64,000 bases of DNA, taken from assembly GCA_965207305.1 (NCBI GenBank), contig CBDBMB010000002.1:193777-257776 (forward strand). Direction: 5' to 3'. The DNA comes from Dehalococcoidia bacterium. Lineage in GTDB: Bacteria > Chloroflexota > Dehalococcoidia > Lucifugimonadales > JAGWBF01. The position numbers and the translations under genes were made by a program. Shown here one piece after another: positions 3,140 to 30,835 of this stretch. Under the pieces are notes generated by a model, which worked only from the letters and a program-made list of their open reading frames with translations, made no database searches and was not told the DNA's origin. Numbering within the stretch: position 1 is the stretch's first letter; each line of letters begins with the position of its first letter.

Positions 3140-3359
3140 AGGTGCCACCCCCTGACTTGTCGTTGATCCACGCCGCCGCAAAATCCGGGTCACCTGCCGT
3201 GACTCAGGTCAATGGTAAGAGGGCGTTCGCGCAAGAGTCAAGACAAGGGGCCATGGCCGGGCCCCCGTGGTTCCTTGCCGGGGTCTGCACGGACGGTTAC
3301 AATGGTACCGTCGCCGCAGCCCACCGGACCGTGCCGGCGACGACGGATAGGAGGCCGTG

Positions 3360-5006
3360 ATGAAGGTGGTCGACGCCATAGCCGAGATACTGAAGAAGGA
3401 AGGGGTGGACTACCTTCCGTGCTATCCTACGACCCCCATCATCGAGGCCGCGGCCGGCGCGAAGATACGCCCCGTCGTGTGTCGGCAGGAGCGCGTGGGC
3501 GTCGGCATAGCCGACGGGTTCAGCCGTGTGACCAACGGCTGCCCCCCCGGGGTGTTCGCCATGCAGTACGGCCCCGGCGCGGAGAACGCCTTCTCGGGGG
3601 TGGCCACGGCCTACTCGGACTCGGTGCCCATGCTGCTGCTCCCGGCGGGGCACCCGGGGGAGAGGATGGGTGTGCCTCCCCACTTCGACTCGGTGCGGGT
3701 CTACGAGCCTGTCACCAAGACGGTGGAGCGGATCAACACGTCGGAGAGGGTCTCCGAGATAATGCGGCGGGCCTTCAGCAACCTGAGGATGGGACGGCCT
3801 GGGCCGGTGATGGTTGAGATCCCGTCGGACATCGCCCTGGAGGAGGCGGACGAGGCTGTCGCCAAGTACCAGCCGGTGCGCGCTACGTGTGCGGTGGCCA
3901 ACCCCAGGGACGTGGACGACGCGGCGCAGGCGTTGCTGGCGGCGAAGTCTCCGGTGATATACGCAGGCCAGGGTGTCATGTACGCGGGCGCCTGCGAGGA
4001 GCTCAAGCAGCTTGCGGAGCTGGTCCAGGCGCCGGTGATGACTACCCTGGTGGGCAAGAGCGCCTTCCCCGAGGACCATCCCCTTGCGCTGGGCACCGGG
4101 GGAGCCACCTCGGCGGGCCCTGTGGTGACCTTCCTGAAGGACGCGGACCTGGTGTTCGGGGTGGGCACCAGCTTCACCAGGCACGGCATGACCATTACCA
4201 TCCCCCCTGGCAAGGTGATGGTCCAGGCCACCAACGACCCCCGGGACATCAACAAGGACTATACCATCGACCATCCCATCATCGGCGATGCCAGGCTGGT
4301 GCTGCTCCAGTTCATCGAGGCGGTGAAGGACCGGCTCGGCAAGGGCCGCCCCGCCGACGGAGAACGGGCCGCGCAGGTCAAGGCGGCCCGAGACGCCTGG
4401 CTGGCCGAGTGGATGCCCAAGCTGACCTCCGACGAGACGCCCATGACCCCGTACCGGGTCATATGGGACCTGATGAAGACGGTGGACCCATCGGAGGCCA
4501 TCGTCACCCACGACTCGGGAAGTCCCAGGGACCAGATGATACCCTTCTACCGCGCCGCCGGACCGCGAACGTACCTGGGCTGGGGCAAGTCCCACGGCCT
4601 CGGCACGGGGCTGGGGCTGGCGATGGGAGCCAAGCTGGCGGACCCGGACAAGCTCTGCATCAACTGGATGGGGGACGCCGCCTTCGGCATGGTGGGGCTG
4701 GACTTCGAGACCGCGACCCGGGCCGGGGTGCCAATCCTGACCATGGTCTCCAACAACTCGACCATGGCCGCGGAGACCAACCAGATGCGCGTGTCCCACG
4801 ACCTGTACAATACCCGGGACATAGGCGGGAACTACGCCGACATGGCCAGGGCGATGGGAGGCTACTCGGAGAGGGTGGAGCAACCGTCGGAGATAGGCCC
4901 GGCGATAAGGCGCGCCAAGGAGGCCACAGAGGAGGGGCGGGCTGCGCTCCTGGAGTTCATCACGTGCTCCGAGACCGCCGCCTCCCACCGCCGCGCCTTC
5001 GGATAG
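3360..5006 (+). CDS. Thiamine-pyrophosphate-dependent enzyme (acetolactate-synthase-like superfamily, substrate unknown)
   Basis: The N-terminal TPP pyrimidine-binding domain pattern is VDAIAEILKKEGVDYLPCYPTTP...RQERVGVGIADGFSRV. The C-terminal TPP-binding part is GWGKSHGLGTGLGLAMGAKLA...MGDAAFGM. AGGAGG lies 5 nt before the ATG at 3360. Confidence 0.8.
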   Translation: MKVVDAIAEILKKEGVDYLPCYPTTPIIEAAAGAKIRPVVCRQERVGVGIADGFSRVTNGCPPGVFAMQYGPGAENAFSGVATAYSDSVPMLLLPAGHPGERMGVPPHFDSVRVYEPVTKTVERINTSERVSEIMRRAFSNLRMGRPGPVMVEIPSDIALEEADEAVAKYQPVRATCAVANPRDVDDAAQALLAAKSPVIYAGQGVMYAGACEELKQLAELVQAPVMTTLVGKSAFPEDHPLALGTGGATSAGPVVTFLKDADLVFGVGTSFTRHGMTITIPPGKVMVQATNDPRDINKDYTIDHPIIGDARLVLLQFIEAVKDRLGKGRPADGERAAQVKAARDAWLAEWMPKLTSDETPMTPYRVIWDLMKTVDPSEAIVTHDSGSPRDQMIPFYRAAGPRTYLGWGKSHGLGTGLGLAMGAKLADPDKLCINWMGDAAFGMVGLDFETATRAGVPILTMVSNNSTMAAETNQMRVSHDLYNTRDIGGNYADMARAMGGYSERVEQPSEIGPAIRRAKEATEEGRAALLEFITCSETAASHRRAFG

Positions 5007-19469: not shown

Positions 19470-20393
19470 TTACTCTACCTTGGGCTGGGCGAAGATTATC
19501 CGTCCGGCCGCGGTCTGGAGCACCCTGGTGACGGTGACGTCGCGGAAGGTGTTGAGGTACCTGCGGCCTCCCTCGACCACCACCATCGTGCCGTCGTCGA
19601 GGAACGCCACGCCCTGTCCCACCTCTTTGCCTTCCTGGATGATGTTGACCGTCAGGTTCTCGCCGGGAATGACCATGGGCTTGAGGGCGTTGGCCAGCTC
19701 GTTGACGTTCAGGACGCGGATGCCGTGGACCTCGGCGACACGGTTGAGGTTGAAATCGGTGGTAAGGATGGGGGCTTCCATGGCCTTGGCCAGCTTGACG
19801 AGCTGGCCGTCGACCTCGGTGCCGTTGAGCAGGGAGGCGTCCAGCACCTGGATGGGCACGCCGGTCTCCTTGCGGATCTTGGCCAGGGTTTCCAGGCCGC
19901 GGCGGCCCCGGTTTCGCCTCAGGGAGTTGCTGGAGTCGGCTATGTGGCGCAGCTCGTCGAGGACGAAGCCGGGTATGACCAGGGTACCCTGAAGGAAACC
20001 GGTCTGGCCGAGGTCGGCGATCCGGCCGTCTATGATGGCGCTGGTGTCCACCAGGATGTTGCCGGTCAGGGCGTTGGCGTAAGGATCTTCCGTCGCGTCG
20101 CGGGGAAAGAACCTGCGCATGTCCCGCTCGCGGCCGGCCCCAATCAACAGTCCCAGGGAGCCCAGGCAGCCGGTGATGGCCAGGGGCACTCCCCAGGACA
20201 TCCAGCCGTCCAGGTTGAACAGGGGCACGGAGATCAGGGCCGCCACCACTAGGCCCACGACCAGCCCGATGGTGCCCGCCACCATCGTCGACGCGGGCAC
20301 CCGACCTATGGCGTCTATCAGATTGTTAAACGGCCTGAACAGATAAGGCGTTTGGTCCCTCCGGGCTGCGTGCCCCGCCGGCGTCGGCCCCAT
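19470..20393 (-). CDS. PIN/TRAM domain protein (YacL-like), membrane-anchored
   Basis: N-terminal TM helices, a PIN core ILVDTSAIIDGRI...VIPGFVLDELRHIADS, and a C-terminal TRAM domain (VNIIQEGKEVGQGVAFLDDGTMVVVEGG). The yacL-ispD-ispF-cysS order is known from Firmicutes. Start placed at ATG 20393; the track ORF extends to 20561. Confidence 0.75.
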   Translation of the reverse strand: MGPTPAGHAARRDQTPYLFRPFNNLIDAIGRVPASTMVAGTIGLVVGLVVAALISVPLFNLDGWMSWGVPLAITGCLGSLGLLIGAGRERDMRRFFPRDATEDPYANALTGNILVDTSAIIDGRIADLGQTGFLQGTLVIPGFVLDELRHIADSSNSLRRNRGRRGLETLAKIRKETGVPIQVLDASLLNGTEVDGQLVKLAKAMEAPILTTDFNLNRVAEVHGIRVLNVNELANALKPMVIPGENLTVNIIQEGKEVGQGVAFLDDGTMVVVEGGRRYLNTFRDVTVTRVLQTAAGRIIFAQPKVE

Positions 20394-20585
20394 GGCAGGG
20401 GAACCGTCCACTGCCGGGACCGCTGGCGACGCGCGGCGGAAACGGGCTTCCTTGACTTCTCCCACGTTCGAAATAGGACGCCCTGAGTCTCGACCGGATG
20501 CGTCGCTAACTGATACTAGAATACCATAAACCATATGCGCAGAAAAAGAACGTAATGGCACTCGGATGGCGTGTTTTGAGGCCTT

Positions 20586-21233
20586 GTGTAGGGTAGGCCC
20601 CCGGCGGGTTACCCAGATTGCTCAGGGCACTTTTCCGTCGGCCCCCTCCGAACTGGACGTGCGGGTTTCACCGCATCCGGCTCTCCAGTGGCCTATGTCA
20701 GCTTCTGCGGCCTATATTCCGTCTAAACCACCTGACTCCCTCTCGCCATGTACCGGGCTTTCCCCGGCTCGGACTACTATGGAGGCTCCGTGACCATAGG
20801 AGTCTCCCCCCGTAGGCCATCCCGCGTTCCGTTGACGTTGGAGTTTTGGCTCGGCTATTCTCAATTTATGCCCATAGCGATTGAGGGCCATTGCCAGGCA
20901 CTGCCAACAGGAGGAACCGTATGACAGCCCGTTCTACTTTGGGCAGGTTTTTGTCGGGTCGTCGAGTCCTCGTTTTGGCGGCAGTTGTGGTAACTGCGCC
21001 GTTGGTCTCTGTGGCCTACTTTCTGGTGTGGCATTATCTCAGTGAAGATGGTGAAGATGCGGTATGCTGCGAGGTGAAGGTGGAGAAAGCGGTGGATTCA
21101 TCCTCGCTGGATTATCCTTCGCGGTGGCTCACGTTTTTGGTTAGCTCTTGTGTTGGAGCCCCACCTCCACAGGTATCGTCGCTGCGGGAGACCGACGACG
21201 AAGTACAGGTCAGGGTGGTCGTCGTCTCCACAC
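20586..21233 (-). mobile_element. ORF-less (or decayed) group II intron. The 3' two-thirds are confident; the 5' boundary is unresolved (GUGUG at 21233 or GUGCG at 21377)
   Basis: Reading the minus strand:
- Domain III-like CAUAGUAGUCCGAGCCGGGGAAAGCCCGGUACAUGGCGAGAGGG at 20781..20740.
- A 40-nt domain IV hairpin at 20736..20697 with no room for a reverse transcriptase.
- Domain V at 20683..20650.
- A domain VI candidate with a bulged A in GGCCUACCCUAC(AC), ending about 20586-20588.
- DI-like CUAUGGG...GCCGAG at 20878..20850.
There is no RT/maturase ORF on this strand. Confidence 0.7.
20650..20683 (-). ncRNA. Group II intron domain V (catalytic hairpin)
   Basis: The 34 nt are GAGCCGGAU-GCGGU-GAAA-CCCGC-AC-GUCCAGUUC. 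They show the AGC catalytic triad at nt 2-4, a 2-nt AC bulge and a GAAA loop. This is near-identical in layout to the canonical GAGCCGUAU...GAAA...AC GUACGGUUC. Confidence 0.8.
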
Positions 21234-21364
21234 CGGTCCGAGATTGTGAGTACAGCCCAGATGCCGTTACAGTCCAACTGCAAAGGCCATTAGGGGGTCG
21301 GGTCGTCATCAACGATACCCGGGTTGTGCCAGTCGATCGAGTCACCCCTGTGCCTACGCAGTGA
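20891..21364 (+). CDS. Questionable ORF (157 aa, one predicted TM helix), antisense to the putative intron domain I
   Basis: The ORF is open with a TTG start (ATG at 20921) and has a hydrophobic segment VLVLAAVVVTAPLVSVAYFLVW. Codon usage is atypical for the window. It lies wholly inside the region where intron domain I is expected on the other strand, so it may be spurious. Confidence 0.25.
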   Translation: MPGTANRRNRMTARSTLGRFLSGRRVLVLAAVVVTAPLVSVAYFLVWHYLSEDGEDAVCCEVKVEKAVDSSSLDYPSRWLTFLVSSCVGAPPPQVSSLRETDDEVQVRVVVVSTPVRDCEYSPDAVTVQLQRPLGGRVVINDTRVVPVDRVTPVPTQ

Positions 21365-21388
21365 GGGCTTGACGCACGACTGGCGGCT

Positions 21389-21412
21389 CAACCGACCACC
21401 GTAGGTCGGTTG
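21389..21412. other. Perfect 9-bp stem-loop CAACCGACC-ACCGTA-GGTCGGTTG
   Basis: Read directly. It lies 11 nt upstream (minus-strand sense) of the GUGCG at 21377. It could be a terminator-like hairpin of the kind some group II introns insert behind. Confidence 0.5.
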
Positions 21413-21563
21413 ACCCAGAAGCTTCCTCCGAGTTTCTCCCGGCTTAGCCGGGTATCCTATGCCGCGTTATGCGGCGCACCCTCCATGCCGCCGAGGGGCC
21501 GCAGCCCTTACTTGCGAGTCCTGCTACACTATTGCGTGATGGAACCGCGTCGGGACGGAGTCG

Positions 21564-23033
21564 ATGGCGGCCGCTAACGGGACGGCGTCCACCCCTGCCC
21601 TCCTCTGGGCCGGCCGGTTGGCCGGGGCCCTGGAGGCTACGTGGCTCCTGACGGTGGCCCTGGTCCCCCTGATATTCGTCCCCACGGACTTCATGTCGTC
21701 GGAGGCGGTGAACGCCTACGTCGAGGTGCCCAAGACGACGGCGCTGCGCCTGCTGGCCGGCGTCATGGTCATCCTCTGGACCGTCGAGTGGCTGCTGAGA
21801 GGCGGACTGACTCGCCCCCCGCAGGCGTCGCGGCCCCTTGCCAGGCTCCAGGCCTGGCTGATGGAGCAGCCCAGCCGCTGGATAGTCGTGGCCGCCACGA
21901 TCTATATCGTGGTAGCCACCATCTCCACGGCACTGTCCCAGTCCTTCTTCATCAGTCTCTGGGGTGAGGTCTCGGGTCAGTTCGGGTACTCGCTGTACAC
22001 CACCCTCTCCTACTTTGTCCTCTTCGCCGTCATCGTCACCCACCTGAAGACCAGGCAGCAGCTCTACCGTCTGCTGGCGGTGATCGTGACCGCCGGTTTT
22101 CTCGTGGCGGTGTACGGAATAGTCCAGAGGTACGAGGGCGACCTGTTGAACGTCGGTGAGGCGGGCAGCATCCGTGTTGCGTCGACGATGGCCAACCCGG
22201 TCTTTACCGGGGCCGCCCTGGTAGGCACCGGCCTGCTGAGCTTGGGGCTGGCCCGGGCCCTGCTGGAGACCTGGGGCCTGACCTCCGGGCGGGCGGCAGC
22301 CGTCGTGCTTCTGACCCTCGCGGTCGGCGCGGGTCACCTGCTGGCGGTGTGGTTCACGGACTCCCGGGGCTCTTGGCTCATCGGCGTTCCGGCCGGCTTG
22401 GTGGCGCTCCTGGGGTTGCCCGCGGCCTTCGACACGCTGGAGGGCGCAGTCAGGCGACGGGCCGTCCCGGCCGACCTCCTGCTGCTGACCGGCTTCATCG
22501 TCGTGCTCACGGCGGCAGTGCTGGCGGCGCAGATGGACGTGATCGGCATCGAGGAGTTCGCAGGGGTCTCGATGGTTCGTGTGCTGGCAGCCCTGATTGG
22601 GGTCCTCGCGTTGTCGAGCATCCTGGCGGCCATCTTCCCCGACAGATTCTCGGAAGGAGTGCGCGACTTCGGCAAGACCCTCCTGCTGGTGGGCTCGGCC
22701 CTGCTGGTCTCCCTGCTGGTCGTGACCTACAGCTACTCTCCCGCGGGAACGGTGAAGCTGGCGTTCCGCGACCTTGCGTTCCTCGATGCCCGGGCGCTGC
22801 TGGCGGTCTTCGGCGCGGCCGGGCTCCTGGGACTGCTGGCGCTGGCGGTGCGCGAGCCAGGGGCTTTACTGGATGCGCGAGACAGGTGGAGGGAGGACCC
22901 ACTCCAGACGCGACGGGCCTCCTCCGCGCCTGCCGTGGGCTGGCGGGTCCGTCTCTCCGCCGCGGCCCGGAACGCCGGCGCGAGGTGGCCAGGGCCGCCA
23001 GGGTCGCCTTGGTGCTGGCATCGGTGGTGGTGA
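21564..23033 (+). CDS. Polytopic membrane protein, N-terminal part of a Wzy_C/O-antigen-ligase-like protein (about 12 TM helices)
   Basis: Many hydrophobic helices are present. The motif LAVWFTDSRGSWLIGVPAGLVALL resembles the start of the Wzy_C domain. The reading frame ends at 23033 in an Arg/Trp-rich tail. Confidence 0.6.
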   Translation: MAAANGTASTPALLWAGRLAGALEATWLLTVALVPLIFVPTDFMSSEAVNAYVEVPKTTALRLLAGVMVILWTVEWLLRGGLTRPPQASRPLARLQAWLMEQPSRWIVVAATIYIVVATISTALSQSFFISLWGEVSGQFGYSLYTTLSYFVLFAVIVTHLKTRQQLYRLLAVIVTAGFLVAVYGIVQRYEGDLLNVGEAGSIRVASTMANPVFTGAALVGTGLLSLGLARALLETWGLTSGRAAAVVLLTLAVGAGHLLAVWFTDSRGSWLIGVPAGLVALLGLPAAFDTLEGAVRRRAVPADLLLLTGFIVVLTAAVLAAQMDVIGIEEFAGVSMVRVLAALIGVLALSSILAAIFPDRFSEGVRDFGKTLLLVGSALLVSLLVVTYSYSPAGTVKLAFRDLAFLDARALLAVFGAAGLLGLLALAVREPGALLDARDRWREDPLQTRRASSAPAVGWRVRLSAAARNAGARWPGPPGSPWCWHRWW

Positions 23034-24835
23034 TAGCCATGCTGGTTGGCGGGCTGGTCCCCACCGTATCATCGGGCGCGCAGCCGCCCGCCATGGACGT
23101 GGCTGAAGGGGACGTCACGGACACGGTTGCCACCGTGGTCCCTGCCGGGCCGGAGGGCCGGGGGCTGAGCTTCCGAAACGACATCTGGGCGGCCTCGTGG
23201 AGACTCGTCAGGGACCGTCCGTGGTTCGAGTACGAGGAGCTGTCGTATGCCCTGGTACGGCCCCTGGTCGGCTACGGCCCCGAGCTGTTCAAGTACACGT
23301 TCCCCCTGGAGAGCCCGCGGGGCGGCCTCCTGAGCCAGGCCCACAACTTCTTCGTGCACCATTTCGTGGAGCAGGGGATACTGGGCGGCTTCGCTTCCGT
23401 GGGCCTTGTCGTGTCTTTCTTCGCCGTGGGCGCGGCCCAGCTCTGGCGCAGCCGGGAGAGGCTCTCCACGGCTCACAGGTGGGTCCTGATCGCCCTCATG
23501 GCGACCGTGGCGGGCCGCGTGGCCGAGATGATGGTCGGGGTGGCCCGGGAGCCGGACCTGGTCACGTTCTGGGTCATGCTGGCCGTCCTGGTAGTCCTGC
23601 CGTCGGTGATGGGGCGGTCCGAGGGGGCGGTTGCCGGGCCGGCTCCAGCGGCCGAGGTCCAGAGGGGCGCCGGAAGGCGGGAGCGGCGGGCCAGGCGGCA
23701 GCGGGAGCGCAGGGCCAGGGGCGCCGCCGGCCTGGGAGCCGCTATATCCCCGGTGAGGGCGCTTGTCCTGGGGGTGATGTCGGCGGGCATCGTGTTCGTC
23801 GGCTGGCTGTCCTGGGACAAGAACGTGGACTACGCCTGGGCGGCTGCCATCGCCGGGTCCGCGGCCGAGAAGCTGTCCGAGGGGGACCTGCGAGCAGGTC
23901 ACCGGCTCATGTCACAGGTGGTCGCCAAGGCCCCGGACGTGCCCGTCTACTACCAGAACCTCGCCCGGGTCTACGACGGCTACAGGAAGTTCGCCACCGA
24001 GAGCCAGGGTGACGTCCAGTCGTGCGAGGAGTACTTCTCCCTGGAGCCGCGAGAGGGGAGGCACCAGGTTGCGGACGGGAGCTTTGCGGAGTGCGCGGAG
24101 GAGTCGTATCTCATCGCCCGGCGGGGGTTGTTGAAGAACGAGGACGCCGCCCAGAACAAGCTGGTCGCGGCCAATTCAGCCATGGCGCTGGCCCTGTTGG
24201 ACTACGAGGGGCTGGACGAGGAGGCCATCCGCTACTACGAGGAGTTGACGGGGATGCTGCCCAAGTCGTGGCGGCAGGAGTACCTGCTCCGCAGGTCCCA
24301 GGTGCGTCTCGGCATGCACCAGGACGTCGTGGAGGGGTCCGAAGAGACGATGGCCAAGGCGCGCACGTCGGGGGAGAGGTCCCAGTCTCTGTACGTTCTG
24401 GGTCTGGCCCACGAGGGTCTTGACCAGCGCGAAGAGGCCATTGACGCCTTCGAGAAGAGCCTGGACCAGCCCGACACCGGCAGTATAGACGCAGAGGTGC
24501 GCCGGCACCTGTTCGCCGCGTACGAGGCCCGGGCCGCGGCGCAGCTGGAGGTCGAGGCCGAGGAGGAGGCGCTGGCAACCCTCGACAGGTATCTTGCCAG
24601 GACCGAGGGCTCCCCTGCCGCCGCCCGCCCCCTGTACCTCAAGGGCTTGGCCTACTACCGGCTGCAGGAGCTGGACCAGGCGCTGGAGGTCCTCCAGGAG
24701 AGCCTGGAGGTGGACGGGGCGGGCGCCATCGCCGCCGACGTCCACTACCTGATGTCCACCGTTTACACGGAGCTGGAAGACGCCGACGCCGCGGCCGAGC
24801 ACGACAGGCTGGCCAGCGAGCTGGAGCAGGGCTAG
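22985..24835 (+). CDS. C-terminal part of a Wzy_C/O-antigen-ligase-like protein fused to TPR repeats
   Basis: RNDIWAASWRLVRDRPW.GYGPELF...QAHNFFVHHFVEQGILGG is the O-antigen-ligase signature loop. TM helices and about 350 aa of TPR-like repeats follow. A possible GTG start at 22985 overlaps the previous ORF by 49 nt in another frame. Confidence 0.6.
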   Translation: MARAARVALVLASVVVIAMLVGGLVPTVSSGAQPPAMDVAEGDVTDTVATVVPAGPEGRGLSFRNDIWAASWRLVRDRPWFEYEELSYALVRPLVGYGPELFKYTFPLESPRGGLLSQAHNFFVHHFVEQGILGGFASVGLVVSFFAVGAAQLWRSRERLSTAHRWVLIALMATVAGRVAEMMVGVAREPDLVTFWVMLAVLVVLPSVMGRSEGAVAGPAPAAEVQRGAGRRERRARRQRERRARGAAGLGAAISPVRALVLGVMSAGIVFVGWLSWDKNVDYAWAAAIAGSAAEKLSEGDLRAGHRLMSQVVAKAPDVPVYYQNLARVYDGYRKFATESQGDVQSCEEYFSLEPREGRHQVADGSFAECAEESYLIARRGLLKNEDAAQNKLVAANSAMALALLDYEGLDEEAIRYYEELTGMLPKSWRQEYLLRRSQVRLGMHQDVVEGSEETMAKARTSGERSQSLYVLGLAHEGLDQREEAIDAFEKSLDQPDTGSIDAEVRRHLFAAYEARAAAQLEVEAEEEALATLDRYLARTEGSPAAARPLYLKGLAYYRLQELDQALEVLQESLEVDGAGAIAADVHYLMSTVYTELEDADAAAEHDRLASELEQG

Positions 24836-30760: not shown

Positions 30761-30835
30761 TGGTCGGGGCGGGCAGGTTCGAACTGCCGACCTCCTGGTC
30801 CCAAACCAGGCGCGCTACCGCTGCGCCACGCCCCG
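30761..30835 (-). tRNA. tRNA-Pro (anticodon UGG), CCA encoded
   Basis: The minus strand reads CGGGGCG-TG-GCGC-AGCGGTA-GCGC-G-CCTGG-TTTGGGA-CCAGG-AGGTC-GGCAG-TTCGAAC-CTGCC-CGCCCCG-A-CCA. This folds as a cloverleaf with anticodon loop TT-TGG-GA. Confidence 0.9.

Follow-up and report, generated by a model that had tools for sequence, protein, structure and literature searches.

A Probable Relic of a Mobile Ll.LtrB-like Group II Intron Carrying an Antisense Passenger Gene in a Dehalococcoidia Intergenic Spacer

Results and Discussion

Location and Boundaries of the Element

The window analyzed here is a 64-kb stretch (64,000 nucleotides) of contig CBDBMB010000002.1 from a Dehalococcoidia bacterium. 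The short spacer between a 12TM/Wzy_C-TPR gene and the divergently oriented PIN/TRAM-ispD-ispF-cysS operon is occupied in this window by group II intron sequence on the minus strand, opposite which lies an open reading frame (ORF) on the plus strand. The original prediction, made from the letters of the sequence, had described the region as an ORF-less group II intron facing a possibly spurious ORF. Our analyses make it very probable that the element is an inactive relic of a mobile intron of the Ll.LtrB kind and that it carries a real antisense passenger gene belonging to the intron lineage. The coordinates of all features are collected in Table 1.

An Rfam scan of the whole window matched RF00029 with E = 2e-7. 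The match covered domains V and VI at 20685..20588 on the minus strand, spanned the full model length and scored 52.3 bits, where the gathering score is 40, which recovered the predicted domain V hairpin. The claim of group II intron sequence without a maturase upstream of the operon was also upheld, as no other intron fragment, no intron-encoded protein (IEP) or reverse transcriptase (RT) on either strand and no paralog of the ORF were found elsewhere in the 64-kb window. None of the Rfam D1-D4 models matched the window at E ≤ 10. An intact relative (L003) was likewise unmatched by them at E ≤ 1. These models therefore do not cover the lineage and the null result is uninformative. Weak matches to twister-P1 (21420..21473, 17 bits) and to snoRNA and lncRNA models were far under threshold and were set aside as chance.

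The ends of the element were located by two comparisons. Eight related copies lying in unrelated flanks shared similarity from GTGCGCCGC, which starts at 21479, to CCUACCYUAC, which ends at 20588. Moreover, an empty site was found in contig L021, from a 98%-related Dehalococcoidia, which is collinear with both flanks (window 21620..21480 = L021 758..898; window 20587..20350 = L021 899..1136) and lacks exactly 892 nt. No target-site duplication was seen at the element ends when the window was compared with this contig, and the 5' GUGCG at 21479..21475 coincides with the insertion boundary. Other relatives of the host (L020 and L022-L024) are also without the element; the host relatives compared were Dehalococcoidia with PIN/TRAM proteins 90-98% identical to that of the window. 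Exactly 892 additional nucleotides with no target duplication are the signature of reverse splicing, and the intron was inserted in this way into a Dehalococcoidia intergenic spacer. The 5' ends proposed earlier, GUGUG at 21233 (about 650 nt) and GUGCG at 21377, are consequently both internal, the true end at 21479 being given by the related copies and L021, and the 3' end shifts from 20586 to 20588 according to the empty site.

Table 1. Features of the intron relic, its passenger gene and the downstream neighbor (window coordinates).
Feature	Position	Strand	Description or basis
Whole element	20588..21479	-	892-nt ML/IIA group II intron relic; both termini intact, two internal deletions
Retained 5' 79 nt	21401..21479	-	GUGCG, basal stems of domain I (5' strands), D1a, D1b and first D1c bases
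Hairpin D1a	21452..21438	-	Within the retained 5' 79 nt
Hairpin D1b	21437..21417	-	Within the retained 5' 79 nt
Deletion-1 junction (between 21401 and 21400)	21386..21410	-	Alignments and BLAST segments against intact relatives
Retained part of passenger insert	20836..21400	-	70-73% identity to inserts of L002a, L001, L003-L007 and L010
Domain I 3' closing strand, UCAACGGAACGCGGGAU	20819..20835	-	Kept in all copies
Domain II	20818..20792	-	CCUACG/CUAUGG receptor-like motif
Domain III	20781..20738	-	Homologous to domain III of intact relatives; resembles that of Ll.LtrB
Domain IV stub	20693..20734	-	5' strand (20734..20715), deletion-2 junction, IEP tail
Domain V	20650..20683	-	34-nt hairpin; AGC triad, 2-nt bulge, GNRA (GAAA) loop
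Domain VI	20588..20649	-	Branch-point A bulged out at 20594, 7 nt before the 3' end; ends ...CCCUAC
Passenger gene	20921..21364	+	147 codons, antisense to the intron; homologs, selection, fold model, promoter and ribosome-binding site
Predicted sigma-70-like promoter	20832..20861	+	TTGACG-N18-TATTCT; -35 hexamer is the complement of conserved ribozyme GUCAA
Ribosome-binding site	20909..20914	+	AGGAGG, for the passenger gene
PIN/TRAM (YacL-like) gene	19470..20393	-	307 aa; start ATG at 20393; orthologs called at 265-307 aa

Intact Relatives and Intron Class

The related contigs with one of the five ORF homologs of 52-62% identity all encoded an IEP of about 596 aa on the opposite strand, with the homolog directly 5' of the IEP in the intron sense. 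This IEP has RVT_1, Intron_maturas2 and HNH domains, and its best match in the PDB was LtrA (5g2x_C), over the full length and with E = 1.2e-126. Since the IEP matches LtrA and domains V/VI follow downstream, these loci represent full-length introns of the mitochondrial-like (ML)/IIA class. By the 70-90% nucleotide homology of its surviving parts to these relatives, the window copy is assigned to the same ML/IIA (Ll.LtrB-like) class. This is the kind that had been foreseen, and both the LtrA match of the relatives' IEP and the pairings of exon-binding site 2 (EBS2) with intron-binding site 2 (IBS2) bear it out.

In the intact copies, the EBS1-IBS1 pairing comprises 5-7 bp ending at position -1, and EBS2-IBS2 another 5-7 bp just upstream. 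The EBS loops co-vary with the 5' exon in L001/L008, L002b, L002c, L003/L005, L004 and L010. Intact copies carrying the insert with the homologous gene (ORF147-type) occur at five other target sites, represented by L002a, by L001/L008/L010, by L003-L005, by L006 and by L007. EBS1 matches IBS1 at four or five of these five sites, the match of L002a being weak and that of L006 judged by eye only. With carriers at five sites and matching EBS1-IBS1 pairings, the intron appears to have moved with its passenger on board. Synonymous divergence between the ORF copies is 0.5-0.7, which shows the association of intron and gene to be old.

The intact introns L001-L006 and L033 were found in regions resembling integrative and conjugative elements (ICEs), with genes for SSB, RadC, Rad52, primase, TSCPD, DUF7007, a DUF6094 methylase, helicase and Prok_Ub, and up to three intron copies were present in a single 19-kb contig (L002). 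In L006, in other respects a typical copy, a 204-aa ORF without family match (3334..3948, minus strand) separates the stop codon of the IEP from domain V and may be another extra gene, in domain IV.

Surviving and Lost Parts of the Ribozyme

The retained 5' part of the window copy is 80-86% identical to the 5' ends of the intact copies, and compensatory changes were observed at 8 of its 17 predicted pairs in a 17-copy alignment. Domains II and III together (20738..20818) are 88-89% identical to those of L002b and L002c and are changed at only 2 of 67 positions that are invariant in intact copies. The stretch that had been likened to domain III of LtrB is indeed the homolog of domain III of the intact relatives. 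By our own reading of the sequences, the strand UCAACGGAACGCGGGAU would be analogous to ...CUGGGGAU of LtrB. Domain VI was delimited by the Rfam alignment, in which the expected bulged adenosine was found, and its 3' end was confirmed by the empty site. Domain IV is a mere stub with no RT ORF on the strand, as had been noted.

Two internal deletions were identified. The first, measured against L002a as the closest intact relative, took out about 378 nt and joins intron position 79 to the insert. It removed the remainder of D1c, the whole of D1d together with EBS1 and EBS2, the strand CCUAUG that forms the 3' side of the second basal stem, and ~90 nt at the start of the insert. About 290 nt of domain I core that all intact relatives conserve are missing, and both EBS loops fall in the absent segment. 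The joined ends happen to give a 9-10 bp hairpin (21410..21386), and the "perfect 9-bp hairpin" once used as a landmark for the 5' boundary is nothing other than this deletion junction. Likewise, the CUAUGGG...GCCGAG elements ascribed to domain I belong to the passenger insert and are not conserved in the relatives. The ORF was described as antisense to domain I; the core of that domain is deleted, and it is the insert that lies opposite the ORF.

The second deletion removed the IEP, so that the 5' strand of domain IV now adjoins what is left of the IEP gene, namely its final five codons and its stop. This tail, CCGCAGAAGCTGACATAG at 20710..20693, encodes PQKLT followed by a TAG stop, and the L003 IEP ends in ...NPQKQT and a stop. 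The presence of the IEP remnant indicates that the ORF-less state is secondary. Furthermore, domain V carries two pair-breaking substitutions at pairs kept in all intact copies, a G to C change beside the GAAA loop and a G to A change in the lower helix. They explain why the RF00029 score of the window is lower than the 65.6-68.4 bits of the intact ORF147-insert copies and their sisters. Overall, the window copy differs at 8 of the 193 ribozyme positions that are invariant in seven or eight intact copies, and two of these 8 lie in domain V. With the EBS loops, the domain I core and the IEP lost and domain V damaged, the RNA is expected to be unable to bind exons, to build the domain I scaffold and fold its core, to splice or to move.

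The heptamer CCUCCAU (20785..20779, minus strand) immediately precedes domain III. As the complement of AUGGAGG, the final 7 nt of the 5' exon, it was considered as a substitute EBS1. It was rejected as a chance match, being also present in L031 at another target site.

The element could alternatively be a complete, splicing-competent ORF-less intron of 650-790 nt that uses a maturase in trans, in which case the plus-strand ORF would be spurious sequence over domain I. The score of domains V/VI above the Rfam threshold and the good preservation of domains II and III and of both termini fit this explanation, and bacterial ORF-less introns that use a related IEP in trans are known (PMC4424553). 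Nevertheless, it is highly improbable. The 5' ends it proposed are internal, and on the boundaries and on the ORF it is already refuted. The missing ~290 nt of domain I core include the loops that co-vary with the 5' exons, two domain V pairs are broken, no IEP was found in the 64-kb window, and the ORF family has stand-alone members and a confident fold model (see below). Of the initial description as "ORF-less or a decayed copy," the second half therefore stands, and the first does not in the sense of a working intron, as the domain I core and EBS loops are missing.

The Antisense ORF Is Best Read as a Real Gene

The ORF at 20891..21364 had been suspected to be spurious. On comparative grounds it is best read as a real protein-coding gene whose true start is the ATG at 20921, as argued by its homologs, by the selection acting on it and by a fold model. 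Five homologs share 52-62% identity with it. Across five lineages, no stop codon interrupts the ORF frame, and each of the other frames contains 1-10 of them. The indels in the coding part are all multiples of three (12, 9, 3 and 3 nt). Pairwise dN/dS values were 0.36-0.66 in the ORF frame, and the two shifted frames gave approximately 0.9-1.9.

When each species was represented by one genome, a scan revealed 13 loci, 12 of them in Dehalococcoidia metagenome-assembled genomes (MAGs) and one in an Acidimicrobiia MAG. At five of the 13 loci (L009, L013 and L017-L019) the homolog, with 37-46% identity, is an ordinary stand-alone gene, with no domain V, IEP or intron 5' end nearby. A profile search of 1.84 billion representatives retrieved 118 family members with E ≤ 1e-3, of which 57 had E ≤ 1e-10. 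The members are mostly 115-145 aa long, and the C-terminal domain is repeated in proteins of 1,929 and 3,889 aa. The protein consists of an N-terminal transmembrane (TM) helix and an all-beta domain of ~95 aa with two conserved Cys, and C77, P83 and L120 are nearly invariant in the family. AlphaFold2, run on a 50-sequence alignment, gave a model with a pLDDT of 85.9 and a pTM of 0.66, in which a helix (residues 11-43) is followed by nine strands. The product would be a small membrane-anchored, disulfide-containing domain protein, probably extracytoplasmic. No Pfam or NCBIfam model matched it, Foldseek found no PDB fold better than E = 0.2, and an exact-sequence look-up in the protein collection gave no match for the ORF (two start versions) or for IspF.

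Upstream of the gene, a ribosome-binding site (RBS) and a predicted sigma-70-like promoter were identified (Table 1). The latter is the only promoter-like site in 20300..21700, where shuffled sequences led us to expect 0.3. This arrangement is conserved in nine copies as TTGAC(N)-N18-TAYTCT/TATTAT, an AGGAGG/AGAGGAG RBS and a start ATG. According to the original prediction, clear homologs of the encoded protein, together with purifying selection on it, would mean that no more than a truncated intron remnant was present. Both were found and the remnant is truncated, yet the ORF belongs to the intron lineage.

Could the conservation of the ORF be a non-coding by-product of RNA constraint on the ribozyme strand? 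The ORF does lie inside an intron, it is unmatched in Pfam and NCBIfam, and the reverse frame that shares its third codon positions has a similar dN/dS of 0.46-0.56. Such an origin is barely credible, however, for a family with 118 cluster representatives, a domain repeated in giant proteins and 37-46% identical homologs that are ordinary genes without intron sequence nearby. In addition, its indels are exclusively in frame, its frame is the sole one open in all lineages, and its product is modeled at a pLDDT of 85.9. The sense strand is also C/A-rich and G-poor, unlike structured ribozyme RNA.

Taken as a relic with a passenger, the locus would have the following history. A mobile ML/IIA intron reverse-spliced into the spacer upstream of PIN/TRAM-ispD-ispF-cysS, with the passenger gene riding antisense at one fixed site of domain I under its own promoter and RBS. 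The copy would then have decayed, losing the domain I segment with EBS1 and EBS2 as well as the IEP and having its domain V pairs broken. In the window, ribozyme and RT would now be dead, but the passenger is still intact as a gene and so are the promoter and RBS that serve it.

Several points weigh against this interpretation. The related contigs are low-coverage long-read metagenome assemblies, and the IEP of L002c is frameshifted. The names of the domain I substructures were given by analogy with LtrB, in an alignment that is credible for D1c, the basal strands and domain III only, and the search for an intact copy within the host covered the 64-kb window. In addition, where three other copies agree on a codon, the window branch of the ORF accumulated 18 non-synonymous and 6 synonymous changes, close to the neutral expectation of ~2.8:1. 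On the L002a branch, the lineage-specific changes comprise 1 non-synonymous and 7 synonymous. The window ORF may thus be drifting though intact. Counter to drift, its three lineage-specific insertions are all in frame, and the balance between an ORF still under selection and one merely not yet hit is close to level.

One Insertion Slot in Domain I and Its Other Passengers

In intact copies, the ORF147-type insert measures 598-635 nt and occupies the base of domain I, with CCUAUG on one side and UCAACGGAACGCGGGAU on the other. Four metagenomic relatives without the insert (L027, L029, L030 and L031) have 8-9 nt at this site, in the context ...ACGUCCUAUG-UCAACGGAAC-GCGGGAU..., and the part preceding their IEP has a normal length of 509-560 nt, that of LtrB being 573 nt. 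We read CAUAGG (nt 19-24) as pairing with CCUAUG, and CCGCG with CGCGG, in the manner of CCCAG/CUGGG in LtrB. With the basal pairings so read, the slot would fall within the internal loop that separates the two basal stems of domain I, on its 3' side. In the passenger promoter, the -35 TTGAC complements a conserved GUCAA of this internal loop.

Other inserts were found at exactly the same point, with lengths of 263 nt (L026), 309 nt (L002c) and 404-418 nt (L002b and L033). The 404-nt insert of L002b holds a second passenger, an antisense gene for a 95-aa lipoprotein (lipobox VAGC; L002 9172..9459, plus strand) with an Excalibur calcium-binding domain (PF05901, E = 1.2e-7, 32.4 bits versus a cutoff of 22). 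A 56%-identical Excalibur homolog is encoded in the same position and orientation in L033 (4001..4309, plus strand), which comes from a different sample and is a complete intron, with its 5' end at 4756, a 418-nt insert, a 612-aa IEP and domain V at 2007. The Excalibur ORF is also preserved in L032, although this copy is truncated.

The insert of L002c contains a candidate antisense ORF of 74 codons (L002 2165..2389, plus strand) with two hydrophobic (TM) helices. A promoter-like TTGACT...CATACT lies 7 nt upstream of it, which suggests a leaderless transcript. Five Dehalococcoidia loci have a sense-oriented ORF in which a passenger homolog (39-40% identity) is fused to DUF6174 (PF19671, E = 3.8e-33): L011 (994..2218), L014, L015 and L016 (4698..5930) and L012 (3330..5930). 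This fusion ORF sits between the first ~135 nt of the intron family and domain V/VI (58 bits), and neither an IEP nor domains II-III are present. A common larger flanking element is shared by the five loci, and L012 has an inserted gene for a 414-aa transposase.

The insert might also be no cargo in a functional sense. It could derive from the host as a captured fragment, or be a small mobile element in its own right, having landed once or on a few occasions in a permissive loop of the intron and hitch-hiked there since, so that relic and ORF would be neutral debris in this genome. An imperfect UCAACGGAAC-like direct repeat flanks the insert, three or four unrelated inserts share the one site, the substitution pattern on the window branch of the ORF is near neutral, and most bacterial intron copies are inactivated debris (PMC4424553), all of which is compatible with this origin. 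On the other hand, no convincing terminal inverted repeats, transposase or clear target duplication were found around the inserts. The passenger ORFs of intact copies are under purifying selection, to judge from the L002a counts, and the passengers keep their promoter and RBS. That the two verified passengers both lie antisense and both specify a small envelope protein speaks for some selection on the cargo. On this evidence we consider such hitch-hiking unlikely, though its probability is not negligible.

A broader proposal, that Dehalococcoidia ML/IIA introns, mostly residing in ICE-like regions, possess a natural cargo slot on the 3' side of the domain I base loop, has in our judgment an even chance of being right. 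The slot would receive antisense envelope-protein genes of at least two unrelated families, driven by their own promoters with a -35 borrowed from the ribozyme, and these genes would spread by retrohoming. The passenger of the window would then have outlived its vehicle, as a first step of domestication.

Genomic Context

The PIN/TRAM gene is located downstream of the relic, its start being 195 nt away, and an ortholog of it (P0123) also has 307 aa and is 98% identical. The spacer contains an AT-rich stretch (~20500..20585) that is conserved in relatives without the intron. The promoter of the operon is probably located there, which would make the operon independent of the relic. The order of the 12TM/Wzy_C-TPR gene and PIN/TRAM-ispD-ispF-cysS is kept in the host relatives. 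The divergent neighbor (21564..24835, plus strand), a 12TM_1/Wzy_C and TPR membrane protein, is divided into two overlapping ORFs of 489 and 828 aa. The same neighbor is a single 1,133-aa gene in L020 and is differently split in L022-L024, so that the split could reflect either a frameshift or real variation. A tRNA gene (30764..30835, minus strand, 67.2 bits) is the sole other Rfam match in the window.

Comparison with Known Introns and Significance

The nearest known counterpart is Ll.LtrB of Lactococcus lactis, a IIA intron with the ML-class IEP LtrA. The lineage described here has the same 5' GUGCGCC, an IEP that aligns end to end with LtrA, a similar D1c (GCGAAAGC...GGGGA.CA..AGCA), very similar domains III and V and the same domain VI geometry, with a 4-bp helix and AC after the branch A. 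The LtrB sequence used for this comparison is 100% identical to Lactococcus plasmid records. The lineage differs from Ll.LtrB by its 260-635 nt insert with an antisense gene at the base of domain I, and the window copy also by its lack of the domain I core and the IEP.

Most copies of bacterial group II introns are truncated or inactivated (Zimmerly and Semper, 2015; PMC4424553). The relic resembles these in its intergenic site, its presumed loss of function and its absence from close relatives of the host. It differs from them by its exact termini and two internal deletions, simple 5' truncation being the more usual decay pattern of bacterial copies. Bacterial ORF-less introns are rare and co-resident with related IEP-bearing copies (PMC4424553). 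Those of Thermosynechococcus and C.te.I1 (PMC4424553, PMC2882425) likewise have a domain IV without IEP in which remnants show a secondary loss, but they keep a complete ribozyme and splice, whereas the relic is without the exon-binding part of domain I.

With respect to cargo, engineered targetrons (PMC3898094) also carry an unrelated gene to new DNA sites. The present case is natural, uses the base of domain I and not the domain IV loop, and has the gene in antisense with its own promoter. Natural non-canonical extra modules are represented by introns that encode LAGLIDADG endonucleases, the only non-RT ORFs reviewed in group II introns, and by the 3' extension of B.c.I4 (PMC4424553, PMC1865049). 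The LAGLIDADG ORFs are sense-oriented and serve mobility and the B.c.I4 extension is RNA only; the passengers of our lineage are envelope proteins without an evident role in splicing or mobility. A full-text literature search, whose coverage left most subscription journals outside, returned no report of group II introns that naturally carry cargo in antisense or cargo unrelated to mobility. Natural passenger genes in these introns are therefore probably, though not certainly, new to the literature. The group II introns of bacteria are viewed as minimal retroelements with no gene other than that for their own RT, and cargo delivery is not known outside engineered targetrons, where the cargo is placed in domain IV.

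The relic is ordinary, and the lineage that carries cargo is not. For annotation of this genome, a trap has been corrected, in that the intron is 892 nt long and most probably dead and the ORF opposite it appears to be real. The essential ispDF-cysS operon would not depend on splicing. If the broader proposal is true, group II introns would act as gene vectors in nature, and their ribozyme would offer targetron engineering a second site that tolerates inserts. An antisense gene with its promoter would then reside inside a catalytic RNA, which raises the question of how the expression of intron and cargo may interfere.

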